Positions 13,226-60,939 of a stretch of DNA of 64,000 nt are shown here, one piece after another. This DNA comes from a virus. Location: positions 1 through 64,000 of IMG/VR virus record IMGVR_UViG_3300017925_000001, one strand, 5' to 3'. The position numbers and the translations under genes were made by a program. The notes below the pieces were generated by a model, which was not told where the DNA came from, searched no databases, and saw only the letters and a program-made list of their open reading frames with translations. Within the stretch, counting starts at the first letter, position 1; each line of letters opens with the position of its first letter.

Positions 13226-13275
13226 TAGTGGGTAGGTGCCTCATACACCTGCCCACACCCTTATGAGGAGGGTTT
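13226..13275 (+). promoter_or_regulatory. SD-sequestering pseudoknot leader, copy A (lacks hairpin 1)
   Basis: Stem GTGGGTAGGTG/CACCTGCCCAC; loop CCTCATA pairs with TATGAGG at the SD. Confidence 0.85.
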
Positions 13276-13602
13276 ATGGAAAAACTACACGAAGAACAGC
13301 GAGCAATGAAAAAGCGCTGGCAGCTCACCAAAACTGAAAGAGTTTGGAATGCACAGCATTCTATGAAGACATACTTCATTCAAGGTGCTTCTACTGGGTT
13401 GATAAAGATAGGCAAGACCGCAGGATCAGTTAAAAAGCGCTGTGACGACTTGCAGGTAGGCAGTCCTGATAACCTTCGCGTGCTGAAAAGTGTGAAGAGA
13501 GACATTGAGAGGGGTCTTCATAAGAGTTTTGCATACCTCAGGACACACGGAGAGTGGTTTCGTCCTGCACCAGAACTTCTGAGATTTATAAGCAAGTTGT
13601 AG
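13276..13602 (+). CDS. GIY-YIG nuclease (T5orf172/MUG113-like)
   Basis: YFIQ...IKIGKT...KR...LQVGSP...E..LH..F...GEWF. Confidence 0.88.
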   Translation: MEKLHEEQRAMKKRWQLTKTERVWNAQHSMKTYFIQGASTGLIKIGKTAGSVKKRCDDLQVGSPDNLRVLKSVKRDIERGLHKSFAYLRTHGEWFRPAPELLRFISKL

Positions 13603-13606
13603 TAGC

Positions 13607-13860
13607 AACCCACTGGAGTTGAGCCCCGCGTCTCTCCTTTCGCGCAATCTGTGCGCTCCTCCAGTGGGAAGAGAAATTGGGCCTAGTTTCCCAAGCGAAA
13701 CAGAGCGGACAACCAACCGCTCTAGCCCATAGAGTTTGTTTCGCTGATTCTGCCGCGACAAGCCAGATCAGGTAACAACGTGCAACTGCCCACGATACTA
13801 GGCAGCATTGGCCCGAGCGTGGTCAGCCCTAAGAAGCCCCACGCTCGCCCGCCGAAGTCC
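13607..13860 (+). ncRNA. Candidate structured non-coding RNA
   Basis: Helices CCCACTGGAG/CTCCAGTGGG, AGCGAAACA/TGTTTCGCT, AGAGCGG/CCGCTCT and CGAGCGTGG/CCACGCTCG. Confidence 0.5.
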
Positions 13861-13895
13861 CATGTCAAGCTGTTAGGTAATTTTTGGAGGCAGCG

Positions 13896-14066
13896 ATGGT
13901 TGTCATTCTCGTACTAGGTACGTTCATTGTATTTCTTGCGATTGATGCAGTTCGATCTCGCGTTCGTGTTCCGCGTGGCACGATGTTCACCACGCCAGGA
14001 TTTGAAATGCTGGGAGCATTAGCCCAGGATGGTGGGACGGAAGTAGAAGCAGATTATGAGATTTAA
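13896..14066 (+). CDS. Small single-pass membrane protein
   Basis: SD GGAGG; hydrophobic N-terminus, LAQDGG motif. Confidence 0.7.
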   Translation: MVVILVLGTFIVFLAIDAVRSRVRVPRGTMFTTPGFEMLGALAQDGGTEVEADYEI

Positions 14067-14141
14067 GCCATTGTAGCTTAAGCGGAAAAGCCCTCACTTG
14101 TAATGAGGAAGTTGGGTTTTCAACTAACCCCGATGGCTCCA
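14067..14141 (+). tRNA. tRNA-Thr(UGU)
   Basis: Acceptor GCCATTG/CGATGGC, anticodon arm CCTCA-CTTGTAA-TGAGG, T-loop TTCAACT, encoded CCA. Confidence 0.85.
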
Positions 14142-14226
14142 GTTTTTAAGCTCGCATCCTCGTGGATACTAGATACACATCTTGTTGATTACAAGGTTGA
14201 AGATAAAGCGAGCTAAGTTTTAGTGT

Positions 14227-14299
14227 AGCGGGGAAGTGAATAGGATCACGAGAGGGCTCATAACCCTTAAATCCGGTTCGAGTCCGGCGACCGCTACCA
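14227..14299 (+). tRNA. tRNA-Met(CAU), initiator-like, imperfect acceptor stem
   Basis: GAGGG-CTCATAA-CCCTT arm with three G-C pairs, TTCGAGT loop, CCA. Confidence 0.75.
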
Positions 14300-14300
14300 A

Positions 14301-14572
14301 AGTTTCGCCCGTAGGTCGCTCAGCGACCCGCGAGGAGACGCTAAGCGACTCCGTGGCGAAAGAAAGACTCACCCAAGTAAACGCAGGCCGGATTCGAGCC
14401 GGAAACTTGTGCTGGTTTGAGACTGTGCAATGCGATATGCACAAACGCCACCTGGGGCAAACCAGGATAGTAGGCCGGTCGCGTGCCTTGGTGAGTTGAT
14501 ATCGCACCAGAATGTGGCGACATAGGGGTCTTTAGGAAGCTTTCGTCCCTCGTACGAAATGAAAGCTCCAGC
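14301..14572 (+). ncRNA. Candidate structured RNA between tRNAs
   Basis: TTTCGCC/GGCGAAA three-way junction; long-range ACTCACC(C)AAG/CTTGGTGAGT helix. Confidence 0.45.
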
Positions 14573-14580
14573 TTTTATAT

Positions 14581-14655
14581 GGGCGATTGGCGTAATCGGG
14601 AACGCACGAGGTCTGCAACCTTGAGTCGTCAGATCGTAACTGGCATCGTCCACCA
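14581..14655 (+). tRNA. tRNA-Ala(UGC), non-canonical loops
   Basis: G3.U70 and A73 identity elements, anticodon loop TC-TGC-AA, T-loop ATCGTAA, CCA. Confidence 0.7.
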
Positions 14656-14678
14656 AGTTCATACATAACTAATACCAG

Positions 14679-14704
14679 AAGCTGCCTAACCGGCAGCTTT
14701 TTTT
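14679..14704 (+). terminator. Rho-independent terminator
   Basis: AAGCTGCC/GGCAGCTT stem plus T-tract. Confidence 0.85.
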
Positions 14705-14755
14705 GTGCTCGAAATACCCGAATGCGGCATAGTCGCTGTGGGCTTTGGAGCAAAT

Positions 14756-15130
14756 ATGCGCAGCGATAAGGTTCTTAAATCTTGGTACCGAAAAATTAAC
14801 CACAAATTTTTTGACAATCAACTCACAGATAACGTTTGCGTCCGTTGGGCAAACGAAGATGACGATGGGGACACACTAAGGTGGGAAGAAAAATTTTTCG
14901 GGTGGTGTGACAAGGCGGGGGATGGCTACCACGAGTACGTTATAGTTCTCAGTAAGAAGATGAATAAGCCTATATCCAGTAGACTCTTGACCCTTTCTCA
15001 CGAAATGTGCCATGTAGCATCTGAGCTTAAAGATCAGCATGGCCCAGCCTTCGAATATTGGAGGCAGTACATCGCAGATCGAGGCATTTTTAAGAAGCAC
15101 GCGCTGGTGAAGAACCTAACGATTTTTTAG
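14756..15130 (+). CDS. SprT-like zinc metalloprotease domain protein
   Basis: INHKFFDNQL; TLSHEMCH...HGPAF. Confidence 0.85.
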   Translation: MRSDKVLKSWYRKINHKFFDNQLTDNVCVRWANEDDDGDTLRWEEKFFGWCDKAGDGYHEYVIVLSKKMNKPISSRLLTLSHEMCHVASELKDQHGPAFEYWRQYIADRGIFKKHALVKNLTIF

Positions 15131-15160
15131 TTGTAAAATTAAAACGAGGAGACTCAGAGT

Positions 15161-15511
15161 ATGTCCGTTGAAGGTGTGGTTGAAGAAGTGAAGCAGGAGG
15201 TCGTAAAAGTGGCTGCCGAAGTTAAGGCAGAGGTTGAGAAGGTTGTTGAGGCAGTGAAGCCCGAGGTTAAGAAACTCGTTCAAGAACTGACTGCTGAGGA
15301 AAAACTAGCTTTGCGTGAGATTGAAAATGCTTACCTGAAGGCCCAGATGGAAATTCAACGCATTCAGCCTATTATTCAGAAGGCTCAGCAAGATTTCACG
15401 AAGACTGTTGAAGGCCTCGTTACCAAATATGCTGTGGACCCGGCAGAGTGGGCGTTCGATAATGTAAAGCTTATTTTTACAAAGAAACCCGCAGCGCCTG
15501 CACAGAAGTAA
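15161..15511 (+). CDS. Hypothetical coiled-coil protein
   Basis: SD GAGGAG plus GACTCA box. Confidence 0.75.
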   Translation: MSVEGVVEEVKQEVVKVAAEVKAEVEKVVEAVKPEVKKLVQELTAEEKLALREIENAYLKAQMEIQRIQPIIQKAQQDFTKTVEGLVTKYAVDPAEWAFDNVKLIFTKKPAAPAQK

Positions 15512-15521
15512 GGAGCCAGAG

Positions 15522-16118
15522 ATGGCAGAAGACTCAGAAAATAACTCGGGGCCTCTGGAAAAGAAACCAGAGGTCACCGAAGAATTAGTGTTGCACGCTA
15601 AATCACAAGACTTTGTAAAAGCAAATCGAAAGAAGAATGGACAATTTGCTAAAAAAGACCGGGCAATGCCTTCGTCTCTCGAAGTAACACGCCTCATGCG
15701 TACGTTGTTGAATCAGGCAGAAGCTGGGCCTGATGGACATATCATGAAGGGCGCACATTCGCGCTTTCGAAAGATGTTCGACAAGATCTTCGAAATCGCT
15801 ACTTGCGGATTTGAGCAACCTGCTAAGGACAAGCACGGGAATGTCATCATGATGCCCGATGGCAAACCTCTCACATACAAGGATGCGAAGATGGCTATGG
15901 CATCGGTCCAGGCCTTTAAGGAACTAATGTTGCGGGCCCATGGAGAGGCACCTAAGAATGATGCTGAGCTTGAAGCTCTGCAGCAGCATGGCGTGCGCAT
16001 AGTCGTGATTCAGCCTCCAGCAGAGATGATGAACCGTGATGTTATAGAGGATGCCCCGCGTCCAGCATTGAAGCCCGCCTTCATAGAGGGGGAGTTTGTA
16101 ACCGACGATAAAAAGTAA
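15522..16118 (+). CDS. Probable terminase small subunit
   Basis: Immediately upstream of TerL; NGQFAK N-terminal motif. Confidence 0.6.
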   Translation: MAEDSENNSGPLEKKPEVTEELVLHAKSQDFVKANRKKNGQFAKKDRAMPSSLEVTRLMRTLLNQAEAGPDGHIMKGAHSRFRKMFDKIFEIATCGFEQPAKDKHGNVIMMPDGKPLTYKDAKMAMASVQAFKELMLRAHGEAPKNDAELEALQQHGVRIVVIQPPAEMMNRDVIEDAPRPALKPAFIEGEFVTDDKK

Positions 16119-16127
16119 GGACTCAGC

Positions 16128-17792
16128 ATGCCAAGAATAAAACGAACTGAAGTAAAAGAACGACCAGCGTATCTTAGTCCTGACGGCACTATTGACCTTA
16201 GAAAGATATTTCAACTCCAGCCAAAACAGACGGAACTCTTGCAGATGCGTACGAGAGACGGAGTTCCTTATATCATGACGGTTGCTCCTCAATGTCTGAG
16301 TGTTGGAGGTTTCCGATCAGGTAAAACTGTAGGGTGGTTGATGTACTTCATCGAAAACTATTCTTTGGCGTATGAAAATTGTGACATACTTGTTCTTCGT
16401 AGAACATTTAAGGAATTAGAGGCAGGCTGTATAAAGGACTTCCTTACGTTTGTCCCAGCAGAGTTGTTTACTTATGATCAAACTAAGCACACTGCTACAA
16501 TGATAAATGGTTCACGCGTTGTGTTTGGTCATTGCAATAATAATAAAATGCGAGACATTGACCAATATCTGGGCACAAGCTATAGCGCGATCCTTGTTGA
16601 CGAGTGCGGTCAATTTTCTCCAGATGCTTGGGGCATGCTTTACTCAAGAAACATTGTAAGTGGTGCTTGTATACCTAATAAACACGGTCATCTTCCTATC
16701 CCAGTGATAGTTGGAGCAACCAACCCTCTTGGTCCTTATTACGAATATTATCGTACGGTGTTTGTGCAGAAGGAACCTTGGGAACGTCCTGAGGGCGCTA
16801 AGCGCGATGCTAATGGTGCATGGTGGGTGGAGTCTAATGGAGAGTTGCTGAACGTATACGACCCACGTTTGTATGCCTATCAGCGCTCAACCGCGATGGA
16901 TAACCCAGAATTCCTTAAGAGGGACCCGGGATTCCTAGCGCGTATGAACAGTTTGCCCAAGGCACAGCGTGACAAAAAACTGTTGGGCCTTGATGGAGCA
17001 GTCGAGGGGCAGTACTTCACCAACTTTGATCCTTATGAACATGTGATAGACCTTCGTGAAGATCCCGATGCTATCATTTTTGAACCGTGGCAGAAAGTGT
17101 GGGCGGGAAGTGACTGGGGGATTGGTCACGCTTGCGCTGCACACATGTTTACTAAGGCTTTGGTAAAAACTTCTAGCGGGGATTATCGACAAAAAGTAGT
17201 GTGCTTCAAAGAGCAAGTAACCACAGGGGGAAAAACACACAAAGAATGGGCGTTGTTGTTTAGTAAGATGTGTAAACTTCCAAACGGTGTAGAAGTTAAA
17301 CCTTCTTCTATTTTCTTTAGTCATGAGAAGTTTTCTAGACAAGTTAGCGCGCATACACCTGCAGACGAGTATTCAAAAGAACTTAAGACATATGGATTAC
17401 CCGCTGTAACTCGTGCTACGCAGGATCGCATAGGATCTGCGTCATTGATGTACAACATGTTATCTAATGGGGAATTGGTGATACTTGACACATGCAAGGA
17501 TATTATCAATGCGATTCCTTCGTTAATGCGTGATCCTGATAATATTGATGATGTACTTAAAGTAGATACACGCGGAGATGATGTTTACGATTCGTTTAGG
17601 TATGGACTGTTTGGACAGCTTGGCACAAGAAAAAGACCTGCAGAAATAGCTATTCAAGAACATGCAAAGGAGCTTGATCCCTTGGCGCGACATTTTTATT
17701 TGATGAAAATGGCTCACGACAAATCAAATTCTAACGAACCTTTTGTTCAGAAGAGTGTGCCTATTTGGCAAGGTAAATGTGGTTTAGCATAA
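16128..17792 (+). CDS. terL: Terminase large subunit
   Basis: Walker A GGFRSGKT, Walker B ILVDE, ATNP motif, nuclease DWG...DDVYDSFRY. Confidence 0.95.
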   Translation: MPRIKRTEVKERPAYLSPDGTIDLRKIFQLQPKQTELLQMRTRDGVPYIMTVAPQCLSVGGFRSGKTVGWLMYFIENYSLAYENCDILVLRRTFKELEAGCIKDFLTFVPAELFTYDQTKHTATMINGSRVVFGHCNNNKMRDIDQYLGTSYSAILVDECGQFSPDAWGMLYSRNIVSGACIPNKHGHLPIPVIVGATNPLGPYYEYYRTVFVQKEPWERPEGAKRDANGAWWVESNGELLNVYDPRLYAYQRSTAMDNPEFLKRDPGFLARMNSLPKAQRDKKLLGLDGAVEGQYFTNFDPYEHVIDLREDPDAIIFEPWQKVWAGSDWGIGHACAAHMFTKALVKTSSGDYRQKVVCFKEQVTTGGKTHKEWALLFSKMCKLPNGVEVKPSSIFFSHEKFSRQVSAHTPADEYSKELKTYGLPAVTRATQDRIGSASLMYNMLSNGELVILDTCKDIINAIPSLMRDPDNIDDVLKVDTRGDDVYDSFRYGLFGQLGTRKRPAEIAIQEHAKELDPLARHFYLMKMAHDKSNSNEPFVQKSVPIWQGKCGLA

Positions 17793-17793
17793 G

Positions 17794-17873
17794 ATCTCGA
17801 AGCTTAGCGGCTTCGGGCTAGCTCGGGAGGTGCCTCAATCACCTCCTTTGAGCGACCTATTGAGGAGGAAGAA
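17794..17873 (+). promoter_or_regulatory. SD-sequestering pseudoknot leader, copy B
   Basis: Hairpin 1 CTCGAAGC-TTAGCG-GCTTCGGG; stem GGAGGTG/CACCTCC; loop CCTCAAT pairs with ATTGAGG. Confidence 0.9.
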
Positions 17874-18575
17874 ATGTTTTATACATATCTGTGGTTACGA
17901 GAAGATGGTACCCCGTATTACGTTGGAAAAGGTTCTGGGCGTAGAGCATTTATAAACCATAGAAAACGTCGGGTGAGGATGCCCCTCGATAAAGAACGTA
18001 TTATCATTCAATATTTTGAGAATGAAACTGATGCCTTTGAAGCTGAGAAATTTCTTATATCATTTTTTGGAAGAGAAGATTTAGGTTTAGGATGTCTTCT
18101 TAATATGACAGACGGAGGAGATGGCCAATCTGGGTTGGTTCATAAAGAATCTTCCAAAGAAAAGATCAGACAGGCCCAAAAAGGTCAAAAGAGATCTGTA
18201 GAAAGAGTTAAAAAGACAGCAGACGCCTTGCGAGGAAGAAAAGGCAGGATGCTTTCCGAAGAAGAAAAGCAATACCTGTCTGATCTTTTTAAGGGTAAGC
18301 CTTGGTCTGAATCTAGAAGAAAAACTCAAGAAGAAAAACCTATCCGTATGGCTACTTGTCACCCCGATAGGAAGCACGCAGCTAACGGCCTGTGCAAAGA
18401 ATGCAACTACAGGGAATGGTCAATAAGAGTAGGCAGAAGACCTGGAACGGGAAAACTTAAAGGCTTTATTCCAACGTGTCACCCGGATAGGAAAGGACAT
18501 GCTAAAGGTTTATGCAAAGCCTGCTATGAAAGGGAAAGATTAGAAAAGAAAAGGAGAGCTCAGGATGCCCTATGA
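17874..18575 (+). CDS. Free-standing GIY-YIG homing endonuclease
   Basis: FYTYLWLREDGTPYYVGKG...R...E...LN.TDGG; NUMOD3-like repeat and two CHPDRK..GLC motifs. Confidence 0.9.
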   Translation: MFYTYLWLREDGTPYYVGKGSGRRAFINHRKRRVRMPLDKERIIIQYFENETDAFEAEKFLISFFGREDLGLGCLLNMTDGGDGQSGLVHKESSKEKIRQAQKGQKRSVERVKKTADALRGRKGRMLSEEEKQYLSDLFKGKPWSESRRKTQEEKPIRMATCHPDRKHAANGLCKECNYREWSIRVGRRPGTGKLKGFIPTCHPDRKGHAKGLCKACYERERLEKKRRAQDAL

Positions 18576-18999
18576 AGAAACATATGGCGCACGAATACGC
18601 CAGTTCATTCAAGAATTGTTTGGCAGTAGGCTTACGGCTCACTTAGAGGATGAAATCACCCGCCTTCGGAACGACCATGACAGAGCCCTGCAGGATCGTG
18701 ACACTCAAATTGCAGTGCTGAGGGAAGAGAAGCAGCTTCTGATGTCAAAGATCACGGCATATGAATTCGCAGTGCTCCCGAGAACGTCTAGGGCAGGTGC
18801 AGAGGTTATAGCGTATCAGAAACCTGCGCCCCCGAAGCCAAACTTCAGCTTCGCAGATCTCCCTCCTACAAAGAGCAAGTGGGAACAATTTCAGGAAAAT
18901 TATTACGCGGGAGAGGCCAAGGCCATAGAGGCTGAAAAAGCAGCCGCAGCTGCTGTTGCTGCACAGAAACAAGCTGAAGCCGCCGCAAAGGAGATTTAG
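18565..18999 (+). CDS. Hypothetical protein
   Basis: Start overlaps the endonuclease 3' end; coiled coil. Confidence 0.75.
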   Translation: MPYEETYGARIRQFIQELFGSRLTAHLEDEITRLRNDHDRALQDRDTQIAVLREEKQLLMSKITAYEFAVLPRTSRAGAEVIAYQKPAPPKPNFSFADLPPTKSKWEQFQENYYAGEAKAIEAEKAAAAAVAAQKQAEAAAKEI

Positions 19000-19233
19000 A
19001 TGGCAGAAAAAGAAGGGTGTTGTGGTGAACTGTGTGATCTGCATATGCATGTTGTTGAAGATGGGTATCACTTTTGTTGCATGTACGAATCTGAGGATAA
19101 CAATTCATTAGGTCGCAGAGCTGGGTGGGTTCCGCCTGCCCCATGTGAACGCAAAGAATACGTTGCAAAGACGAAAGCGGCAGCGATTAAGAAATTTGAA
19201 GAGATTTTGAACGAGAAGCATTGCAGTAAATAG
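19000..19233 (+). CDS. Cys-rich hypothetical protein
   Basis: SD AAGGAG; abuts the upstream stop. Confidence 0.7.
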   Translation: MAEKEGCCGELCDLHMHVVEDGYHFCCMYESEDNNSLGRRAGWVPPAPCERKEYVAKTKAAAIKKFEEILNEKHCSK

Positions 19234-19253
19234 CGGCTAAGGCCGAGGAGGAA

Positions 19254-19730
19254 ATGATGTTCCCTACAAAAGATGGAAAATCCTACGGTAGTCGCTTTGT
19301 GGCGAAACGTAAGGACGCTGAGCACGCGAAGATGGGCGCACCTGCAGCGGGTGCAGGAGAGAATTTGATGAAGAAAGCGTCCCCTGCTGCCCCTGCGGCT
19401 GGAGCACCTGCGGCTGGAGCACCTGCAGTTGGTGAACCTGCTGAGCAGAAGCCTGAAGGCATTGGCGCAGCACCGGAAGATCCAAAGCAGGTTGTCGCTG
19501 CGCATGGCAAAGCGACCACAGTTCACATTGCGCATGATCACAAGAACGGAAAGCATCATGTTGTCAGTACTCATGAGGATGGGACTGTGCATGAGTCTGA
19601 GCATCCTGATGCAAAAGCTGCTCACACTGCAGCAGCTGCCCTAGCCGGGTCTGGCGATCAGCCAATGGGTGAACCTGCGGCACCTGAGGCACCCGAAGCT
19701 GATGGTTTCAGCATGCCGAAGCTGGCATAA
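19254..19730 (+). CDS. His-rich hypothetical protein (paralog 1)
   Basis: HDHKNGKHHVVSTHEDGT motif. Confidence 0.8.
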   Translation: MMFPTKDGKSYGSRFVAKRKDAEHAKMGAPAAGAGENLMKKASPAAPAAGAPAAGAPAVGEPAEQKPEGIGAAPEDPKQVVAAHGKATTVHIAHDHKNGKHHVVSTHEDGTVHESEHPDAKAAHTAAAALAGSGDQPMGEPAAPEAPEADGFSMPKLA

Positions 19731-19742
19731 AGGAGATCAAAA

Positions 19743-20165
19743 ATGTATCAAAGTAAAACAGACCCATCCAGAAAGTTTGGCAGTGCATTTAGAGGTTCTC
19801 GCTTCGATGCGTACCACGCTGGTGAGCAGCCCGGTGGAAGCAATGAGAACGAAAAATCTGAACCACAAGAACGTGGCTCCAGTGATGCAGATGTAGCGAA
19901 GGCGAAGAGTCCTGCAACATCATTCCACTTTGTTCATGATCATGCTGGCAACAAGCATACCGTAACCTCTACGCATGAGGACGGTACTACAAATCAGACG
20001 GAGCATGGCAGTGCAAAGGAAGCATACGATTCCGCAGCGCAGTTGGCTTTGGAAGCGGGTGGGGAAGAGCAGGCTACTGATGTGAAGAAACGCACACATC
20101 CCGATCAGCAAGGCGCAGAGTCCGAAGAGCGTGGCTACGAGATGCCTGATCTGACCATGGCGTAG
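19743..20165 (+). CDS. His-rich hypothetical protein (paralog 2)
   Basis: HDHAGNKHTVTSTHEDGT motif. Confidence 0.8.
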   Translation: MYQSKTDPSRKFGSAFRGSRFDAYHAGEQPGGSNENEKSEPQERGSSDADVAKAKSPATSFHFVHDHAGNKHTVTSTHEDGTTNQTEHGSAKEAYDSAAQLALEAGGEEQATDVKKRTHPDQQGAESEERGYEMPDLTMA

Positions 20166-20174
20166 GAGAGAAGT

Positions 20175-20360
20175 ATGCCGTTCGTATCACAGAAACAAAG
20201 ACGCTGGGCTCATGCGAACCCAGAAGAGCTGGGTGGAGAAGCGGCTGTTTCGGAATGGGAGTCGCATACTCCCTCTGAGCTTCCGAAGTACAAGCACGGG
20301 ACAACCACTTCTCCCGAATTGAAAAAGCGTTTTACCTACGCTGCAAAAACCAAGAAATAA
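20175..20360 (+). CDS. Small phage protein (MPFxSxKQRRW family)
   Basis: SD AGGAG; common phage N-terminal motif. Confidence 0.75.
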   Translation: MPFVSQKQRRWAHANPEELGGEAAVSEWESHTPSELPKYKHGTTTSPELKKRFTYAAKTKK

Positions 20361-20368
20361 GGTGCAGT

Positions 20369-20473
20369 ATGTGGCCGTTGTGGATGCGAAAGTGTCCTCT
20401 ATGCGGACGTGTGTTGTACAAGAGTTCACTGTCTGAGACACTGAAGTGTGTCTGCGGGTGGCTTTGGAGTTGA
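20369..20473 (+). CDS. 34-aa Zn-ribbon peptide
   Basis: MWPLWMRKCPLCG...KCVCGWLWS; below the ORF-track cutoff. Confidence 0.45.
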   Translation: MWPLWMRKCPLCGRVLYKSSLSETLKCVCGWLWS

Positions 20474-20484
20474 CCATGATAGGT

Positions 20485-20613
20485 ATGGCACGAAGCAAGA
20501 AAAAGGAAGTCGAAACAGATTCTGGTGATGCCAAGAAGACCTTCAGAGAAGTACTTGGTCTTGGGGACGAAGATAAAATCAAGTCCGTGAAGTTGAAAGT
20601 GAAGATGAAGTAA
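20485..20613 (+). CDS. 42-aa basic peptide
   Basis: MARSKKKEVETDSG...KVKMK fills the gap before the portal gene. Confidence 0.5.
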   Translation: MARSKKKEVETDSGDAKKTFREVLGLGDEDKIKSVKLKVKMK

Positions 20614-20628
20614 TCTCAGAGGAGACAT

Positions 20629-23283: not shown

Positions 23284-23287
23284 AATT

Positions 23288-23365
23288 ATCTCAGGACTTA
23301 TAAACCTGAGCTAGAGTAGGGAGGTGCGCGAACATCTCCCTTCTCGCCTTTTCGCGGAGGAATCA
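23288..23365 (+). promoter_or_regulatory. SD-sequestering pseudoknot leader, copy C
   Basis: Hairpin 1 CTCAGG/CCTGAG; stem GGGAGGTG/CATCTCCC; loop CGCGAA pairs with TTCGCG. Confidence 0.9.
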
Positions 23366-23974
23366 ATGATTGTTTATTTGATAACAAACGAAGTGAATGG
23401 AAAACAGTATATAGGTCAGACCGTTCGCAGTTTGCAAGTACGTTGGAAAAAGCACTTGTCTGCTGTGGTTTTGGGCAGTGAGTATTATTTTCACAAAGCC
23501 ATAAGAAAATATGGTGAAGAAAACTTTTCTTTGTTAGTACTCCACATTTGTGAAACCAAAGAAGAGATGGACTTTACCGAAGTGTTCTACATTTCTTTGT
23601 TGGGCACAAAAGCTCCTAAAGGATACAACTCTACCGAGGGTGGAGAAGGAACTGTAGGGCATAAACATACTGAAGAGTCCATTCAGAAAATGAGAAGTTC
23701 TCATAGTGGTCATAGAACCACTGAAGAACACAAAGAAAAGTTACGAAAAGCTTCCGAAGGAGTTCCGAAGTCAAAGGAGCATTGTCGCAGCATTTCTGAA
23801 GGAAGAAAAGGTATAAAATTTTCTTCTGAGCACCGAAAGAATATAAGTTTAGGACACATCAGAAATATTTGCCATCGTGGTCACAGTAGGATTCCTGCTA
23901 ATCTCAACAGAGATGGATCATGTAAACAATGCAAAAGGATTACAGAGCTTAAGAGATTGGGGAGGAGCCTTTGA
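23366..23974 (+). CDS. Free-standing GIY-YIG homing endonuclease (Seg/I-TevI-like, NUMOD3)
   Basis: IVYLITNEVNGKQYIGQT...R...GYNSTEGG; HTEE repeats; start set to the ATG after GGAGG. Confidence 0.92.
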   Translation: MIVYLITNEVNGKQYIGQTVRSLQVRWKKHLSAVVLGSEYYFHKAIRKYGEENFSLLVLHICETKEEMDFTEVFYISLLGTKAPKGYNSTEGGEGTVGHKHTEESIQKMRSSHSGHRTTEEHKEKLRKASEGVPKSKEHCRSISEGRKGIKFSSEHRKNISLGHIRNICHRGHSRIPANLNRDGSCKQCKRITELKRLGRSL

Positions 23975-24597: not shown

Positions 24598-24621
24598 ACT
24601 CAGGACTCAAGGAGACTCAAG

Positions 24622-26115: not shown

Positions 26116-26216
26116 ATTTAAAGTCTTAACCCAGACCCATAAACCGTCTGGAAAGGGGTCTGTAGCTGCCTGGGAGAAATTCCGAAAGCTACAAGAATTA
26201 TCCTAGGAGAAATAAC

Positions 26217-26486
26217 ATGGCACAAGGCGTTACGAGGACGGGAAAGCCCGTTCAGGTTGGCGACACTGTTAGCATTACTGGTGTTGTCACGGCGGTTACA
26301 GGTAGTGGGGGCGCAGCTAATCTCACAGTGCTTTGCCAAGGTGCGCTGGATGGCCCTTTCAATGAAACCACCACTGTGCAGGGTGGCGCGTATTCGTACA
26401 GCATTGGGGTTCCCCTTGCTGGTGGGACGAACGCACCGGCTACTGGTGTTTATGCAGCCGATGTGACTGCATCTCAATCGCTGTAA
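26217..26486 (+). CDS. Small beta-rich virion protein (possible decoration)
   Basis: SD AGGAG; resembles 47127..47363. Confidence 0.7.
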   Translation: MAQGVTRTGKPVQVGDTVSITGVVTAVTGSGGAANLTVLCQGALDGPFNETTTVQGGAYSYSIGVPLAGGTNAPATGVYAADVTASQSL

Positions 26487-26501
26487 TTTAAGGAGAAAAC
26501 A

Positions 26502-29335: not shown

Positions 29336-29411
29336 GTATTCCAGCGACGGTTGGGATACCGCGTGGGAGCAGCCTAGAACTGCTCCTGCGCAATCTTTCT
29401 AGGAGATAATT
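29336..29411 (+). promoter_or_regulatory. SD-sequestering pseudoknot leader, copy D
   Basis: Hairpin 1 GTATTCCAGC/GTTGGGATAC; stem GGAGCAG/CTGCTCC; loop CCTAGAA pairs with TTCTAGG. Confidence 0.88.
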
Positions 29412-30068
29412 ATGACAGAAAAGATTTGCACTAGATGTTGTGTTTCAAAACTTTTGAATGAAGAGAACTTCAAGAAGAGAAAAGGTTATGCTGACGGCTT
29501 CCACACATGGTGTACCGAGTGTTTGAAGACTTACAATGCATGGTGGGAAAAGAAGAATAGAGATGCAGACCCAGAGTACTACCGTGCTCGGGAATTTGCA
29601 CGAGAGATGAAGAAATACGGAACTACTGTGGAGTGGTACCGAGACCGGCTCATAGAACAGCTTGGTTTATGCGCAATCTGCGGACATCTTAGTCATCATC
29701 ATGGCACGATTCAGAGACTTCAGGTCGATCATGCTCATTCTTGTTGTGATTTGCACACCAAAAGCTGTGGCAAGTGCCTTCGCGGTCTACTTTGTGCCGA
29801 TTGTAACATTAGGCTAGCTCCGCTTGAGCTTCTGTTGACCGAGTTCCCTTCCGAAAGAGTTGATCAAGCCGAGGTTTTCCTTCGCAATTCCGTTGTAAAA
29901 GACTCATGGACCTATCGAGCGTTGAAATATCTCAAGAGGTACGTGCAAGATCATAATAAACCTTGGAACCTGACGCAGGATGCCTTAGCAACTCTAGAAT
30001 TAGCAAAAATTAAACCAAGAGAAGGCGTGATAATCACAGGCGTGACTCAGGAGACTCAGAATGTATGA
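29412..30068 (+). CDS. Endonuclease VII-type homing endonuclease
   Basis: KYG...QLGLCAICG...LQVDHAH...RGLLCADCN; N-terminal Zn finger. Confidence 0.9.
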   Translation: MTEKICTRCCVSKLLNEENFKKRKGYADGFHTWCTECLKTYNAWWEKKNRDADPEYYRAREFAREMKKYGTTVEWYRDRLIEQLGLCAICGHLSHHHGTIQRLQVDHAHSCCDLHTKSCGKCLRGLLCADCNIRLAPLELLLTEFPSERVDQAEVFLRNSVVKDSWTYRALKYLKRYVQDHNKPWNLTQDALATLELAKIKPREGVIITGVTQETQNV

Positions 30069-32225: not shown

Positions 32226-32243
32226 ACTCAAGGAGACTCAAGA

Positions 32244-33313: not shown

Positions 33314-33394
33314 CCCCTAGACTAATTACCTAGGGGCAGCCGTGGGCTCCTTGCTTACCCAAGGGGCCTGCGCAATCTCGGTAAGGAGGAAGTC
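33314..33394 (+). promoter_or_regulatory. SD-sequestering pseudoknot leader, copy E
   Basis: Hairpin 1 CCCCTAG/CTAGGGG; stem GGCTCCTTG/CAAGGGGCC; loop CTTACC pairs with GGTAAG. Confidence 0.88.
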
Positions 33395-34009
33395 ATGGGA
33401 AGAGCAGGAAAATACACAGGTCTCATTGGAAAGAGGTTTGGTCTTCTAGAAGTCAGAGTCTTGTCACGTATTGTGCATACAACTCGGTTTGGGAAGCCAA
33501 TAGGATTTACACGATACTACCTTTGTAAATGTGATTGTGGTGGCTCGATAATTGTTAGAGAAACACATCTAACCGAGAAAAGAAAAGCCAACATACAAAA
33601 AAGTTGTGGATGCTTGGTGAAGGAGCTGCACAAGAGTGCTTCGTGGCACACAAAGTCTCGCAAAGAAGGCACAGCTTTTCGTAGATGCTTGGATCAATAC
33701 AAGGCGAATGCAAGGAATCGTGGATTATCTTGGGAGTTGACCGATGATCAGTTCAGAGAGATCACTACATCTCCGTGTCATTATACCGGAGAGGCTCCAT
33801 CCACGGTGAAAAAGTCTAGGTGCGAAGAGTATGTGCATAATGGCATAGATCGCATAGACAATAATAAAGGTTACATAACAGAAAACTGTGTTCCTTGTTG
33901 TGCAATTATCAACCAGATGAAGGCGGATCTCTCATTGAAGAGATTCTTGGAGCTATGCAAAAAAGTTTCAGAGAGGACACAATGTGAGCAGCCCAACAAT
34001 CAACAGTAA
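33395..34009 (+). CDS. HNH-type homing endonuclease
   Basis: GKRFGLL...CKCDCG...KSCGC; GIDRIDNNKGYITENCVPCC..N.MK. Confidence 0.9.
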   Translation: MGRAGKYTGLIGKRFGLLEVRVLSRIVHTTRFGKPIGFTRYYLCKCDCGGSIIVRETHLTEKRKANIQKSCGCLVKELHKSASWHTKSRKEGTAFRRCLDQYKANARNRGLSWELTDDQFREITTSPCHYTGEAPSTVKKSRCEEYVHNGIDRIDNNKGYITENCVPCCAIINQMKADLSLKRFLELCKKVSERTQCEQPNNQQ

Positions 34010-51660: not shown

Positions 51661-51737
51661 ATCCCAAAGCTTAGCGGCTTTGGTGTAGAGTCGGGAGGTG
51701 CCATTCCACCTCCCCGCTCGACCTGAATGGAGGAACT
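51661..51737 (+). promoter_or_regulatory. SD-sequestering pseudoknot leader, copy F
   Basis: Hairpin 1 CCAAAGC-TTAGCG-GCTTTGG; stem GGGAGGTG/CACCTCCC; loop CCATTC pairs with GAATGG. Confidence 0.9.
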
Positions 51738-52733
51738 ATGATTAACAGAAATTTTGTGCGTTTAGTTTTGGCTGAAGGTGGAACAATCAAACCGTTGATG
51801 ATTTCTTCTGTTGACTCTGGTGGGCTTGGGCTCTGTAACCCGTCAGTGTTTGTTGATCACGGTGAAATTTGGTTGATACTCAGAAATGTCAGTTACACGA
51901 TATACCACTGCGAAAATGAGAAGAGATTCAATAGTCGGTATGGTCCGCTGAGTTATCTCAATCCAGAGCATGACCAGCATTTGCGGACTACGAATTTTCT
52001 TTGTAAGTTGACACCAAGTCTCGAAATAGAACGATACTGGAAAATCGACACTAGCCATCTCGACAAAGAACCGCTCTGGGAGTTTACGGGTTTGGAAGAC
52101 GCTCGTCTCGTACGTTGGGATGGGCATCTGTACGGTATCGGAGTTCGGCGTGATACAACAACCAACGGTCAGGGACGGATGGAGTTTTCGGAACTCGAAT
52201 TGGTCAACGACACTGTAAAGGAAATCGGGCGATATAGAATTGAACATCCTACGGCTCCTGAATGGTATTGTGAAAAGAATTGGATGCCAGTGTTGGACAT
52301 GCCTTACCATTTCATCCAGTGGACAAATCCTGCGGTATTGGTTAAAGCTAACCTTACGACTTTGAAGTCCTATCGGGCGATTGAGGTCAATGAGTCTGGC
52401 AAGATTGAAGGCATGCCATTTCTCCGTGGGGGTTCCCAAGTAATCCCTTGGCATAACTATTACATCTGTATTGTCCACGACTGTGACCTGACCAAGAATC
52501 TCATAGGACAAAAAGATGCTACTTACATGCATCGGTTTGTGGTCTATGACCGGAATTGGAATATAGTTAGGATTGGCGACCAGTTCTCTTTCATGGATGG
52601 GGAAATCGAATTCTGTTGTGGACTCGCAGAATATGAGAAGGACTTCTTGATGACGTTCGGTTTTCAAGATAATAGTGCTTGGATTTTGAAAATTCCATCA
52701 TCTATAATTCCCAAATTGATCGGAGTAGCATGA
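51738..52733 (+). CDS. Five-bladed beta-propeller glycosidase/phosphorylase-like (GH130-like) protein
   Basis: NPSV, GLEDARL, EKNW.P, RGGS, IEFCCGL, FGFQD. Confidence 0.8.
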   Translation: MINRNFVRLVLAEGGTIKPLMISSVDSGGLGLCNPSVFVDHGEIWLILRNVSYTIYHCENEKRFNSRYGPLSYLNPEHDQHLRTTNFLCKLTPSLEIERYWKIDTSHLDKEPLWEFTGLEDARLVRWDGHLYGIGVRRDTTTNGQGRMEFSELELVNDTVKEIGRYRIEHPTAPEWYCEKNWMPVLDMPYHFIQWTNPAVLVKANLTTLKSYRAIEVNESGKIEGMPFLRGGSQVIPWHNYYICIVHDCDLTKNLIGQKDATYMHRFVVYDRNWNIVRIGDQFSFMDGEIEFCCGLAEYEKDFLMTFGFQDNSAWILKIPSSIIPKLIGVA

Positions 52734-54909: not shown

Positions 54910-55443
54910 ATGAAGAACGTATTGAAAGCGGTTTTATTCGCTGCTATGTCTATCTCTTTATTTGGGACATGCCTTGCACAAGAAGGCAGATTGCAAGTAA
55001 AGACTCAGACGCACACTTTAGCACTAAAAGAAAAAATCAAGGTTGATCCACCTACCAAGTATGTTTTGTCTGGCACCTATTTGGTATCCGGCAACGGCAA
55101 TGTAACGTACATAGAACCTTTGTCTGTTACGTATCTTGACGACCCCTTAACAGTAACGTGCGCGAGCACATGTTCAATCCTAGGCAGCTTAACAGTGCAG
55201 ACCAGTGGAAGTATTTCCAGTAATAACCTGGCTGTATGTATGCTTGTGGATGGAGAACCTGTTCCAAACGGTTGTCAATGGTCTACTGATACTCCAGGTG
55301 ATGGTACTTTTGTTGAAAGTTCTGTTTCTTCTTGGGTAGTAGATTTGCCTGCTGGGGAACACACAGTACAGACGGCCATAGCTTCTGAGTATGGCTGTGA
55401 TTATGAATACTGGGGCTTTCAATATTCTGTGTACAAGCCGTAG
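54910..55443 (+). CDS. Secreted hypothetical protein
   Basis: Sec signal MKNVLKAVLFAAMSISLFGTCLA. Confidence 0.75.
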   Translation: MKNVLKAVLFAAMSISLFGTCLAQEGRLQVKTQTHTLALKEKIKVDPPTKYVLSGTYLVSGNGNVTYIEPLSVTYLDDPLTVTCASTCSILGSLTVQTSGSISSNNLAVCMLVDGEPVPNGCQWSTDTPGDGTFVESSVSSWVVDLPAGEHTVQTAIASEYGCDYEYWGFQYSVYKP

Positions 55444-55450
55444 GGAAAGC

Positions 55451-55525
55451 ATCTCAGGTCCTCGAAACCTGGGCTAGAGCTGGAAGGAGCCTAACTCTCC
55501 TTCCTTGCTCGATCTGATTTAAGAG
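55451..55525 (+). promoter_or_regulatory. Pseudoknot leader, degenerate copy G
   Basis: ATCTCAGG/CCTGGG-CTAGAG; stem GGAAGGAG/CTCCTTCC; loop CCTAACT pairs only imperfectly with TTAAG; no SD or ATG at the usual position. Confidence 0.7.
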
Positions 55526-55561
55526 CTGAATATCTAGAAAAGTGGAAGGAAGGGTAGCGAT

Positions 55562-58500
55562 ATCGGACATAACCTTAAACAACTGGGTAAGTAAGTTGCC
55601 CCCTCAGTCAGTAATGATTGAGCGCAGAACCAAGAGAATTCGGTGAAACGCCCTCTGGGCCAATACCGAGCCGAGCCGCTAATGCGGAAGGTGTAACGAC
55701 TATCCCGCAAGGGAGTAGGGAACAGTGTTCCCGAAGTACTTGGGGTCCTGAAAAGGATCATGATATAGTCTGGTCTTACTGGCAACAGTAAGAGTTCGAA
55801 TGGAAACGATTCGAGCGTAACATATAAACGACAGCTTCTTTGGATTGTTTTGGCGGTCTTATTACCATGGCTCAAGCCCGTGATTTGCCCGAAGGTGCGA
55901 GTCCGAGATGTTTCGACGTTGACTTTACAGTCGGTAGCGTAGCCACTCGTCCCGGCTTAGTATCCGTGTATACCTACGCAAATACTTGGGCCATCACCTC
56001 GTACTCCCTTGGTAGTGGTGGTCTTGCAACATTTAACTACACCGGTATCCCCGAGATCACCGAGAACGAAGGATTGATCCTCAGCGGATTCCAAGGACCT
56101 CTCAGTGTTTTGAACGGAACCACGATATATGCCGAAGCTGTAACCATGAACACTTTCATGGCACAAGTAGTTGGACCCTTGGGCACCTTTGTCAACCTAA
56201 GCGCCAGCGCAGTTTCCCTAGTGGGCTCCTTTGTAGGGCCTAACCAAGGGGTTGCCTCTAGCACTTCTTGGAGTAGTCCGCAGAACGTGTTCAGTCCCAC
56301 GGGGTACGCCTCGGCAAGCGGAGGACAGACATACAGCCCTGCGATTGTCCCTGGATCAACGTCTAGCACTTCATCTACAGCTTGGACTAACCCAAGCTAT
56401 GCTTTGTCCACAAGCCCAAGTACGTACGCTACTGTGAGTTCTCTTGGTGCAGGAGTGTCCGCACCCCTCTATGCGAGTGCTTTGGGCTTGTCTGTACCTC
56501 CCAATGCAACAATCACAGGGGTGAAGGTCGCATTCTCTGCTAGAGCTACAGAGGCCAGCGGTAATCCATACGTCATTGCTCAGCTTGTGCTGGGAGGGTC
56601 GCAAAGTTACTTGGGAAGCGCAGTAAATATTCCTATCGCAGCGAATGGCGCGAGTTTGGCTCCATACAATTATGGTTCCTCAACGTTTCAATGGGGTACC
56701 ACTCTGACGCCCGCGATTGTCAATGATCCTACTTTCGGGTTTGACCTAAGCGCTTTCACGGGAACTCTGTCGAACAACTTTCATTATTATTTGAACAGCC
56801 TCGTGGTCGCGGTTTACTACACCACATCGGCTACAACAGAGATTCTGACGGCCAACAGTTTCGGATTCTCGATCTCGTTGTCTTCTGGAGTCTCAGGGTT
56901 CAACACCACTTTCAAAGCGTATTCCAGCGCATCTACTTCGGCAGTGTTTCAACTACTTGAGAACGGAGTTCCTCAGGGCACTCCTAAGACTCTTCCTCTC
57001 ACCACTACGCCCACGGTGTATAATCTGGGCGGGCCTGAGGACCCTTGGGGCTATGTCTGGTCAGCAGCCAACGTCAACTCTCCGCAGTTTGGAATTCAGA
57101 TCACAGCCGAAGGAGTCGGCACTACGTACGTAGGGGACTTGGATGTCACCACATTTGTCACCCCGGCGCTATCGAATTTCAACTGGATTGGGAGCTATGA
57201 GCAGACGAATGCTGCGCTTACCACTCTGGCTCTTGATGCTGATGGCAACATGTGGGCTGAGAACGTTCTCAATAACCCTGGGGTACTATCGCTCTCATTG
57301 AGCGGTTTGCTTCCAGATTCGTACGCGGTTGGAGCTACGATGAATGATTCCGAGTTCATCATGTTCTCGGATCTGAATATCGGCACCGACCGTCCTCGTC
57401 AGCTCTACAACGATGGAAACTGGTATCCGGTGACCCAAGTGGGCCCTGGTAGTGCTCCGACATTCTTGGCTTCCACAGGTGGGATTACTAATACCCTGCA
57501 CATCAGCGCTTACACAGCAGTCGCAGGCACACCCACTATTCCGTCATCAACGACCTTCACAATATCACCTGTGGCAGCTGTAGCTCCGGTTGTTGGATCA
57601 CTTTATGTACTGAGCGGATTCACTGGGCCGGACGCAGTATTGAATGGTCAGGTGGTCACGGTTTTGACAGGTGCAACCACTGCTAGCTTTTCAGCAGATG
57701 TATCGGTTACTGCTCCAGGCAACACCGCTGTCGTAGCTCTTGCTACGCTCACCTTCGCATATCCCATAGAGAGCATCAAACAATTGGGGTACATTACGAG
57801 CGGTCTGAGCGGTGGGGTGCTTTGGTTCCTTCTGAGTACAGGACCTAACCAGTCTGCTCAGGGCAGTGTAGTGACAGTGTACTACGCATATGCATCGCCT
57901 TCACTAGCGCCAAATTTGAACCTTCAGAATGCTTGGAATGCGTCTGTGGCTGGAACTGGTCCTCCAGTTTACGTGCAGATCAATAATGCAGCCAATGTCA
58001 ATGGTTACAATTTTGATGGGATCTGGCAAGTCACAGGCATAGGGTACAACCATTTCTTGGGGTATACCTCACAGGGGTATTACTTCACTTTCCAGTACAC
58101 TGAGTCTGGTTTTGCCAACGGCACCAACAATGCCACGGCTTATCTGACACAAGCCACGTTGACCTTAGCTTCCCCTGGTGTCGTTGGGATCACGAATAAT
58201 ACACCCATCACTATTACAGGGGTCACAGGAAGTTCTCCAGATCAGGTAGGGTACAACAATACGTGGGTTATCACCAACGCTGTCAATACAGGTCAGTATA
58301 ACATCACTGAATCCCAGTATAATGGCGCTGGGGTTGCGACCTTCACATACAACTTCGCCTCTTTAACTAATAGTCAAGTTCCTGTTGTAGGTAATACCAT
58401 TCAGATCATAGGCGTCACCAACAATGCCGCCATGAACGGTATCTTTGCAATTTCGGCTGTGAATGCTGGCGCTTCTACATTCAGCGTGCTAGTGACTATC

Positions 58501-60858
58501 CCAGGCCTTGCAGCGCAGCCCTCAGCTATTGCTGAGAATAGTGCGCAGGCAACTATGGCTGGTACGCAGTTCATATTTGATCCTGGGGCTTTGCTGGCGG
58601 GCAGCGCATCTGGAAATGCTATATTTGGAACAGCGACCGATGGAGACGTATCATTCATTGGTGTTACGCTGGTTCCGATAGGGGCAGGTACGCGCCAAGG
58701 TGTCGTGTTCTTCATTACGAAGACTGGCTCTTGGACGCCTGCGTCTCCTCCTGTAACATTCACTATTGCAGCTGATGCAAACCAGCTCAATGTGTCGAAT
58801 ATCCCAATTGGACCTCCTGATGTCGTTGGCCGAGGCATAGCAATTACCGAGGCCGGTGCCAATGGCGTCCCAGGGGCAAACTTCTACGTGATCGAGACCG
58901 CCGTAACCACAACTGTAAACACAGTGGTGACTACGAACACGTCTACGATCATCAAGGATAACACAAGCACCACAGCTTCCTTTAGCTTTTCGGATGCTGT
59001 CCTTCTGAACTCTACAGAAGTTGACGTGCCCAGCCTAGACATTTTCAACACGATTGAAATAGGCAGCTGCGCATGGTGCGTTCCTTATTCGAGCAGAATG
59101 TTCTATGGCCTGCAGCTGAACAAGGTGCAGAACTTTAACAACCTGACGTTCGACGGGGGATATGTAGTTCCGAATCAACCTGCAGGTTGGGGCTTGAATC
59201 TCGCCACAAGCGTTCCTACAGAATTGGAGCTGATAATCAGCCCGGTTACTGGAGACGCAATCTACATCCTTAACTCAACGGGGAGCATTCAGCCACAGTT
59301 TGGCATGCTCTATCAGACGGCCTATCAGGACCCCTACAACGTTGCGATCATACAGAACAACACAGCGTATTCGGTACGCGTGGCCTGTTCCTGTCCTTCG
59401 GGCGTTGCTATAGGGAATCTCGTGATTGACCTCACGCAGTTCAATAACGGCAACTTCACGCAAGGGGCAAACGGCCTCGGCGTGTACGGCTCGTTCGTGC
59501 TACCTTTGTCTGAGATGTCACCTTCAGTACGAGTCTACACAGGGCCACTGCTTGCTGCGTCTGTGTTCACTGGGAATGTCGATCCATACCTGACGTTCCG
59601 CGTTTGGGCTCAAAACATGGGCCTAGGGGCAGACTTGCTCATCGACCGTATCGAAGTCTATCCTACGCTTTTCCCTTACCTTAAAACTGAGGTCTATGGG
59701 TCATACATAGGGCGACCAGAGATGGTGGACGCATCGGGGGACGGGGGCATTATCGACACGTCTACTGAGAATCCGCAGCCTGTCATGGGAGCGTTTGTGC
59801 TTCGTGATAGTCTATACTTGCTCAAGACGAATAGCATGTACGTGACTAAGGATAATCCAACTTCAGAGCCATCAGGCTGGTCCATAAACGAAATAGATAA
59901 TAGGGCTGGTGCATGTGGTATCAACGCATACGACACGGGTGAGGAATGGGCGATCATGGCATGCCGCAATGGCATCTATGGTTTCGATGGGGGCAAGCCT
60001 GAACTGCTCAACTTGGAAATACTTCAGGTTTGGAATTGCATCAATTGGAACGCGGGAAACTCCATATGTCTGAGGAATGATACGGAAAACCGTAGGATTC
60101 TCTGTACAGTTCCGCTGCCCACTGGGACAAGCCCTGATGGCGTTGCAACCGCAACGACTACATGGCTCCCCTACGCACCGTATAACCCTGCTCCGACTAC
60201 TCCCAATGTCATACTCGTATGTAACTATGAAGCCATAGGGTCGTTTGAAGAGTTACTAAAAGACCAAGGTGTCCATGCTACGATGTTTGGCCAGTTGGCG
60301 AACCCAGATATGCGCCGTAAGTGGACAATCTGGAACATACCAACTCCTTATTTAGGACAGGTCACTAGAGCCAACTTACTTGAGATAACATTGATGGTTT
60401 GTAACGGAATTGACTCTTCAAAGATTTATCAATTTGAAGATGAAGCCACCAGTGATGATGGGGCTCCGATACACTCACTTTATTGCGGCTACGGTTTTGT
60501 CAACGCGGCCAAAGCAGTGACCATGCCCATTTTTGGGCTCCATCAGAAGCGATACACATTATTACAGTTTAATGCTAATGGTGCTGGGCAGATGAATGTC
60601 ACGTTGTTCCCTAATGATTTGGGGGCAAGATACCCATTGACTGTCCCACTAGGATTGCCTTATGGCATCGCTCTGGTTGACCCCGCAAACGATGATTACT
60701 TTAGGCCAATCAACATCAAGGCACAACGGTGCTTCACGCAATGGGAAACCAATGCTGTTGGGGCGTGGTTTGAACTTTGTCATGTTTTGCTTTCAGGAAA
60801 ACAAGATCCATGGTCCTCACTCAATCCAACGGGTGGAGGTTCGAACGGGATAGTTTAA
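55562..60858 (+). CDS. Tail tubular B / stabilisation (P22 gp10-like) protein with a large beta-rich insertion; join(55562..55588,55831..60858)
   Basis: Exon 1 (M)GHNLKQLG joins TASLDCFGGL in frame; FGGL...P.GAS...RPG N-terminus; precedes the ejection genes. Confidence 0.7.
55589..55830 (+). mobile_element. Group I intron 3 (ORF-less)
   Basis: P1 GGGT/GCCC; core GAATTCGGTGAAAC, AATACCGAGCC, GACTAT, GATATAGTC; terminal G; close relative of intron 2. Confidence 0.9.
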
Positions 60859-60859
60859 T

Positions 60860-60939
60860 ATCTCAAGGCTTAGCGGCCTTGGGCTAGAGTTGGGAAGTGC
60901 TATGAACACTTCCCTTCTCGCCTTTTCATAGGAGGAATT
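60860..60939 (+). promoter_or_regulatory. SD-sequestering pseudoknot leader, copy H
   Basis: Hairpin 1 CTCAAGGC-TTAGCG-GCCTTGGG; stem GGGAAGTG/CACTTCCC; loop CTATGAA pairs with TTCATAG. Confidence 0.9.

Follow-up and report, generated by a model that had tools for sequence, protein, structure and literature searches.

A family of structured leader RNAs fronting homing-endonuclease cassettes in uncultured peat and wetland phages

To our knowledge, apart from a few T4 cases, little is understood of the tolerance of free-standing homing endonucleases within phage operons that are essential and highly expressed. In T-even phages, structures that sequester the ribosome-binding site (RBS) repress I-TevI, I-TevII, I-TevIII, segB and mobE, a role either shown or proposed (PMC2988022, PMC3014915), and such hairpins limit translation of the nucleases from long polycistronic transcripts (PMC2988022, PMC3014915). 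Here, we describe a leader RNA of ~80 nucleotides (nt) from the IMG/VR virus record IMGVR_UViG_3300017925_000001, a complete genome of 109,724 bp with direct terminal repeats and 48.8% GC, of which the first 64 kb (positions 1 to 64,000, hereafter 'the window') were analysed. The complete genome holds ten copies, eight in the window and two beyond it, and eight of the ten directly precede a homing-endonuclease open reading frame (ORF), as the T-even hairpins do (Table 1). We consider it probable that these copies belong to a new family of 5′ leader RNAs, structured and cis-acting, that front homing-endonuclease cassettes and keep 30S subunits off the nuclease start site, in a clade of ~100–110-kb peat and wetland phages. 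The RNA structure itself, and its link to mobile nuclease cassettes, we regard with very little doubt as computationally established.

The RBS hairpins of T-even endonuclease genes (Aeh1 mobE included) appear to be the nearest published precedent, and the function proposed here would be the same: in both cases the Shine–Dalgarno sequence (SD) is base-paired within the leader structure of phage nuclease genes, intron-borne as well as free-standing. The T-even hairpins are, however, simple, gene-specific and non-homologous, each with an embedded late promoter that frees the SD, whereas the present leader is one homologous family (two hairpins, a loop–tail pseudoknot and a linker–SD helix) shared by three nuclease families at 2–10 copies per genome, with no internal promoter seen. 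Pseudoknotted operators and riboswitches, such as the T4 gene 32 leader, rpsO/S15, preQ1 and SAM-II, bind a protein or ligand through conserved loop or junction bases. They share with our leader an H-type topology in which a loop pairs with a downstream strand at or near the SD; in our leader, in contrast, the core of the loop is wholly randomised between copies, and the leader has no match among Rfam models. The kissing loops of ColE1 RNA I/RNA II and HIV TAR-TAR*, which are 6–7 nt long, fully paired and formed between molecules, are alike in leaving no loop base unpaired, and the partner strand would itself be the loop of a small hairpin if the linker–SD helix forms. Here, however, the partners lie 16–20 nt apart on one RNA, and the linker is too short for a straight kissing complex. 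What is new is the RNA family; the type of control would be one already known from T-even endonuclease genes.

Architecture and covariation of the leader

The leader consists of two tandem hairpins. It begins with AUCUC and hairpin 1, followed by a GCUAG junction and hairpin 2, which comprises a 3-bp outer helix, a 2 × 2 internal loop, an 8-bp inner helix (often a mimic of SD and anti-SD, GGGAGGUG/CACCUCCC) and a 6–7-nt loop. Hairpin 2 is followed by the 5-nt linker GACCU and then by a strand that complements the loop over its full length; next come the SD and, 6–10 nt further on, the AUG. All eight sites in the window that a preliminary description had listed as sharing a recurring layout exist, and its seven loop/complement pairs are exactly as quoted; at 55451 the layout is present only in part, with both hairpins intact and the loop complement, SD and ATG lost. 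An unbiased genome-wide scan, which required a stem of ≥5 bp, a 5–8-nt loop and, no more than 30 nt away, ≥6 nt of its reverse complement, recovered all seven knotted copies and also the two outside the window, at 69682–69765 and 77199–77278, the latter retaining the same layout with a wholly different hairpin-2 sequence (GGCCCUAGCGUG/CGCGUUGGGGCC). An exact complement of a 6–7-nt loop arises by chance in a 25-nt tail with p ~0.001–0.005 per copy, giving a chance p of ~6e-16 for seven exact complements among eight copies.

A covariance model (R1), as proposed in the preliminary description, was built from seven copies using the nested stems only, with the pseudoknot left unencoded. Within the genome it found nine of the ten copies, including 13226 and 29336 on which it had not been trained (E ~3e-5), missed 33314 and returned no further leader copy. 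In related IMG/VR contigs it gave 88 matches from peat and wetland phages, 63 of them distinct, and near-complete relatives carry 2, 7–8 and 6 copies, compared with ten in the present genome. The leader is a family, not a local repeat. Pattern scans were far less specific: of the 103 stretches from a first scan of IMG/VR, 100 were screened, and R1 placed leaders in roughly 25, the others resembling chance matches; in 185k prokaryote genomes, a pattern scan returned more than 120 hits attributable to chance, and one of the 100 stretches screened had a true leader.

The distinct copies were aligned by model R1 (alignment A3), an earlier MAFFT alignment of ten copies having ignored structure; because R1 did not model the knot, the alignment could not be biased toward it. 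In A3, 91.8% of cells were paired, against 69.9% in shuffles (none of 500 reached the observed value) and 38–52% when partners were slid, and 23 of 26 pairs changed on both sides, with both hairpins covarying too. The pseudoknot helix was 82% paired despite register slips from 6-nt loops; six of its seven pairs changed on both sides, and one occurred as UA in 11 copies, AU in 9, CG in 9 and GC in 8. When each copy was anchored on its own loop, the whole hairpin-2 loop was perfectly Watson–Crick complementary to the tail in 53 of 58 usable copies, while loops set against the tails of other copies reached at least 6 nt in 50 of 3268 comparisons (1.5%). The covariation between loop and SD flank, reported at first from seven copies, is thus upheld in 58 distinct copies aligned by a model blind to the pairing. 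Sequence at the centre of the loop is randomised between copies, with ~0–0.3 bits of information at positions 62–64.

The alignment also bears on a DNA-level origin, whether as a recombination or homing landmark, a cruciform inverted repeat or a functionless dispersed repeat. The leader does mark the 5′ edge of a mobile cassette, and the pseudoknot pairs are almost all Watson–Crick, as might be expected of such an element. Yet the many G–U pairs in hairpins 1 and 2 are compatible with the + strand RNA only, and would be C–A mismatches on the other strand; all copies are oriented with their genes; interleaved (knotted) complementarity has no DNA rationale; and the sequence drifts freely with pairing kept. 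We find a DNA-level explanation scarcely credible.

Hairpin 1 loops (A3 columns 11–29) fall into about six types, four of which contain a palindromic tetramer (GAUC, UCGA, UAUA or AAUU); the commonest type, UUAGCG, is without one.

The preliminary description had not recognised the leader as a described RNA, and no Rfam 15 family matches it: at gathering threshold the whole window returned two group I introns and tRNAs only, and permissive scans of 13100–33500 (E ≤ 5) and 55300–56000 (E ≤ 1) gave no match at any leader. The int-alpA model (RF02996; 71 positions, cut-off 35.8 bits) was without a match anywhere in the complete genome at E ≤ 10, the main text of Weinberg 2017 (PMC5737381) leaves int-alpA and homing endonucleases unmentioned, and full-text literature searches found no such leader family described. 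Several familiar elements were considered and rejected. An intrinsic terminator is not indicated, with no U tract after hairpin 2 and copy 29336 alone flagged, weakly, among the copies in 13000–32900. The junction TAGAGT is not a −10 box, its GAG covarying as a helix arm (e.g. GCG/CGC), and no conserved sigma70-like or other motif was seen inside the leader. The anti-SD-like 3′ arm of hairpin 2 does not lock the true SD, as it is unconserved and copies with unrelated stems keep the same SD. Finally, the loop core is randomised, so an SD-sequestering riboswitch pocket of the preQ1 or SAM-II type would have no conserved ligand-contacting bases.

Pairing of the Shine–Dalgarno sequence and its possible function

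The pseudoknot had been proposed to mask the RBS. The loop does pair with the SD flank, its partner ending 6–10 nt before the AUG in all copies; however, this partner overlaps the SD by 0–4 nt only, and the rest of the SD is paired by a second helix that the preliminary description had not seen. The conserved linker (consensus GACCU, last U invariant), fixed in length at 5 nt, pairs with the SD bases 3′ of the loop partner, with the three linker–SD pairs forming in 52, 51 and 49 of 55 copies. Linker and SD vary in matched fashion (CCU/AGG, UCU/AGA, CCUU/GAGG, GUCC/GGAC and GUCUU/AGGAC; Fisher p 5e-7 and 2e-7), and since the UCU/AGA variant was seen with three nuclease types, it does not reflect a single inherited event. 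With the pseudoknot taking the first 0–4 SD bases and the linker helix the remainder, every SD base has a covarying partner, the AUG itself and the A-rich spacer that separates it from the SD being unpaired. This full pairing of the SD, together with the fixed register of the partner before the AUG, is the strongest argument that the element concerns ribosome access.

In the reading we favour, the hairpin-2 loop would pair with the strand ending in the first SD bases, the linker would pair with the remaining SD bases, and the resulting fold would deny 30S subunits access to the start site of the nuclease. A nuclease lying within a highly expressed late operon, after terminase, portal or tail genes, would then be translated weakly, or when the fold is opened. 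We infer both the effect and its sign from the arrangement of the sequence; on balance, the leader seems likely to lower nuclease translation. The opposite sign would be expected of a translational enhancer, in which a compact fold blocks long-range pairing with upstream coding RNA, or offers a standby platform, and raises nuclease translation. The A-rich, unpaired spacer would suit such a role, and T4 genes 25 and 38 use initiation-improving structures (PMC3014915). However, the SD bases are themselves the covarying paired partners, and essential genes behind leaders that have no nuclease carry a second, open SD instead of using that of the leader, making enhancement very improbable.

Several observations weigh against ribosome exclusion as we propose it. 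The single metatranscriptome with sequence of this phage yielded two contigs, both from the terminase gene only, and does not bear on leader expression, transcript ends or processing. The pseudoknot by itself hides few SD bases, as described above, and the linker–SD helix is short (3–5 bp). No internal promoter of the T4 kind, able to free the SD, was seen; copy 13226 lies just downstream of a consensus (perfect) sigma70 promoter (13180–13209) whose transcript would include the whole fold, so the T4 promoter trick seems not to apply. Two solo leaders in relatives, L016:8360 and L128:6263, keep an intact pseudoknot with no ORF behind it, and part of the element may serve another purpose. The invariant unpaired bases A1, A40 and U123 suggest a tertiary fold or a bound factor. 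Geometry presents a further difficulty for the H-type pseudoknot proposed in the preliminary description: L1 and L2 are 0 nt and L3 is 5 nt with the 3-bp outer helix kept, or ~10 nt if it is opened. With the outer helix closed, the five linker bases would have to span ~13 stacked layers, which looks sterically doubtful, and if the linker–SD helix also formed, the result would be a kissing complex with the stem bases far apart. The covarying loop–tail pairing stands; it is the simple coaxial form, together with the outer helix, that is in doubt. Given this steric problem, the outer helix, pseudoknot and linker–SD helix may be alternative states, or parts of a sharply bent fold.

Mutually exclusive helices would be the working parts of a regulated switch or operator, in which the fold is the off or on state, triggered by a factor from phage or host, or by a ribosome or polymerase passing through, such that the nuclease is made at a set time. 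Three helices that covary yet seem, on the inferred geometry, unable to coexist point in this direction, as do the invariant unpaired bases and fixed 5-nt linker, which resemble a recognised surface, and the temporal control of T-even nuclease genes (PMC2988022). Against this, there is no candidate factor, the hypervariable loop cannot be a ligand pocket and an internal promoter motif is not conserved. A switch also overlaps with ribosome exclusion, adding regulation to the same structure, and we judge it unlikely.

Nuclease cassettes, solo leaders and introns

The nuclease assignments of the preliminary description hold approximately: copy 13226 precedes a MUG113/GIY-YIG-like ORF, copies 17794, 23288 and 60860 precede GIY-YIG nucleases, 29336 an EndoVII nuclease and 33314 an EndoVII/HNH nuclease by PHROGs. 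The proposed link to nucleases therefore holds for these six window copies and not for the other two, 51661 preceding a 331-aa (amino acid) ORF of unknown family and 55451 standing alone ahead of a structural gene. The 331-aa ORF is translationally coupled to a GIY-YIG ORF, and may be cargo of the nuclease cassette. Across the family, 51 downstream ORFs had Pfam matches to Endonuclease_7 (13), NUMOD3 (12), GIY-YIG (11) and HNH (9), overlaps being possible, and the downstream nucleases clustered into at least four groups; three of these groups include members behind a single leader subtype, which has CUCCAA as its loop and GUCCU as its linker.

Junctions in related phages show how leader and nuclease sit among their neighbours. 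Where the insert is missing at the terminase and portal junctions, relatives have a stop codon, a ~10–65-nt SD-bearing spacer and an ATG; in the window, the same junctions hold leader and nuclease exactly between the stop and the SD of the next gene, and the inserted nuclease ORF extends over that gene's SD and ATG, as the ORF at 17874..18575 does with its 3′ end. The same insertion site carries different nuclease families in different relatives, with the insert present or absent, and one remnant (L121:2586) is a truncated leader fused to the next gene. From these comparisons, leader and nuclease together form a discrete mobile cassette. The preliminary description's notion of a portable module spanning three nuclease families is borne out, in that the leader is common to three families and moves as a cassette.

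Two further observations concern these nucleases. At 17853–17933, many other contigs from peat metagenomes are drawn in by the opening 60 nt of the GIY-YIG ORF (depth 356 versus ~5), and the upstream loose ends of these contigs resemble other leaders with different loop partners. A nuclease-like ORF of 325 aa at 3358–4335 contains repeated zinc-finger motifs and is akin to the nucleases linked to leaders, but is itself without a leader; it has its own consensus promoter (TTGACA..TATAAT) with an ATG 11 nt later and no SD, a near-leaderless start.

Solo leaders were found at L128:6263, L016:8360 and 55451 in the window. The last two are orthologous, both lying ahead of a ~1680-aa tail gene that uses its own second, unstructured SD, and the pseudoknot has decayed in two solo copies. 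Retention of hairpins 1 and 2 at 55451 after loss of nuclease and pseudoknot would suit an mRNA insulator, stability or processing module, in which hairpin 1 caps the 3′ end of the upstream mRNA after cleavage at GCUAG and the knotted hairpin 2 shields the nuclease mRNA at its 5′ end; neighbouring late genes would thereby be left undisturbed by the cassette, and SD pairing would be secondary. Such a module would also fit the position of the leader, which in most copies begins 1–12 nt beyond the stop of a long ORF upstream, the conserved GCUAG junction with its invariant A, and the RNase E processing documented beside T4 seg genes (PMC2988022). However, it leaves the loop partner abutting the SD and the linker/SD covariation unexplained, and copy 13226 keeps the knot without hairpin 1. 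Insulation thus strikes us as distinctly unlikely to be the main role, in comparison with the ribosome exclusion favoured above.

Two copies lie close to group I introns. The ~1680-aa tail gene of the window has a 27-nt first exon (nine codons) followed by a 242-nt group I intron (55589–55830). At the start of this gene (55562–55830), the window has ATC where the ortholog L016:8454 has ATG, the alternatives being a rare AUC start and a start that has been damaged. The second intron (28976–29247; Rfam 74 bits) lies four codons before the stop of a capsid-like gene whose exon 2 spans 29248–29263, and copy 29336 is found 73 nt after this short second exon. Copy 29336 had been placed within an intron; splice sites put it outside, after the last exon of the capsid gene, and likewise rule out an intronic position for 55451. 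The succession of intron and then leader with EndoVII cassette at the capsid gene brings to mind cases in which a free-standing nuclease and an intron home together. A sub-threshold group I match at 27704–27954 (34.7 bits against a cut-off of 50) could be a third intron.

Table 1. Leader copies, their loop/partner pairs and the ORFs behind them; bit scores are those of model R1, and positions beyond the window are marked as genome positions
Feature	Position	Strand	Loop/partner	ATG	Details
Leader without hairpin 1; hairpin 2, SD, ATG	13226..13278	+	13239-45/13262-68 (CCTCATA/TATGAGG)	13276	24 bits, E 3e-5, outside training set
Full leader, directly 3′ of TerL stop codon	17794..17876	+	17833-39/17859-65	17874	80.6 bits
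Full leader, after 884-aa (portal-sized) gene	23288..23368	+	23327-32/23351-56	23366	74.7 bits
Divergent leader	29336..29414	+	29373-79/29397-403	29412	23.9 bits, outside training set; linker AAUCU pairs with AGAU
Divergent leader, same layout	33314..33397	+	33354-59/33380-85	33395	missed by R1; linker CUC pairs with GAG
Full leader	51661..51740	+	51701-06/51725-30	51738	77.4 bits
Solo leader	55451..55533	+			66.3 bits
Full leader, directly after 1672-aa gene	60860..60942	+	60900-06/60925-31	60940	88 bits
Leader beyond window	genome 69682-69765		CTCATTC/GAATGAG		
Leader beyond window	genome 77199-77278		CTCCAT/ATGGAG		
108-aa ORF	13276..13602	+			MUG113 (GIY-YIG-like T5orf172) domain
233-aa GIY-YIG-type homing endonuclease	17874..18575	+			NUMOD3, PHROG 314
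202-aa GIY-YIG homing endonuclease	23366..23974	+			
218-aa Endonuclease VII-type nuclease	29412..30068	+			
204-aa EndoVII/HNH-like nuclease	33395..34009	+			PHROG 1035 at 1e-17; no Pfam match
331-aa ORF, unknown family	51738-52733	+			no Pfam/PHROG match
GIY-YIG-type ORF	52730-53467	+			ATG overlaps TGA of 331-aa ORF (ATGA)
222-aa GIY-YIG-type homing endonuclease	60940..61608	+			NUMOD3, PHROG 15526/314
HNH nucleases behind the two leaders beyond the window	genome 69763, 77276				

Source genome, host and significance

The window encodes three tRNAs and contains two Rfam-level group I introns. Its large terminase gene (TerL; 16128–17792) encodes a protein at most 26% identical to those of isolated phages, and megablast of 8 kb in search of the nearest phage records gave no match; this phage therefore has no cultured relative. 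In IMG/VR, ~34 contigs encode TerL 36–100% identical to that of the window, and the sequencing runs with phage DNA are all peat or wetland DNA metagenomes. A 1.26-kb contig (L176) binned to a Terracidiphilus metagenome-assembled genome bears a true leader (74 bits), the one recovered from the screened prokaryote-genome stretches, and this single binned contig weakly suggests Acidobacteriota of peat as the hosts. At 13095–13209, back-to-back near-perfect sigma70 promoters (12/12 with TG on the + strand, 11/12 on the − strand) separate the leftward from the rightward gene blocks; promoters and SDs in the host are evidently of the canonical type.

The covariation of the leader is textbook-grade, and the family is ready for an Rfam entry. 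The leader also supplies a sequence signature by which such cassettes, and the edges of their insertions, can be found in genomes of uncultured phages, and as a compact, natural, fully paired loop knot at a ribosome-binding site it could be reused as a tunable translation lock. A bolder proposal, which we offer tentatively and with considerable doubt, is that each leader is a programmable, copy-specific RNA lock, in which the three covarying, mutually exclusive helices act as a switch and the diversity of loops prevents cross-pairing among the locks of a genome, which number up to ten; such locks would suggest that phages have a general means of domesticating homing endonucleases. Under the reading we favour, the leader would be the first example found of a homologous RNA family that is portable and serves nucleases with three distinct folds.

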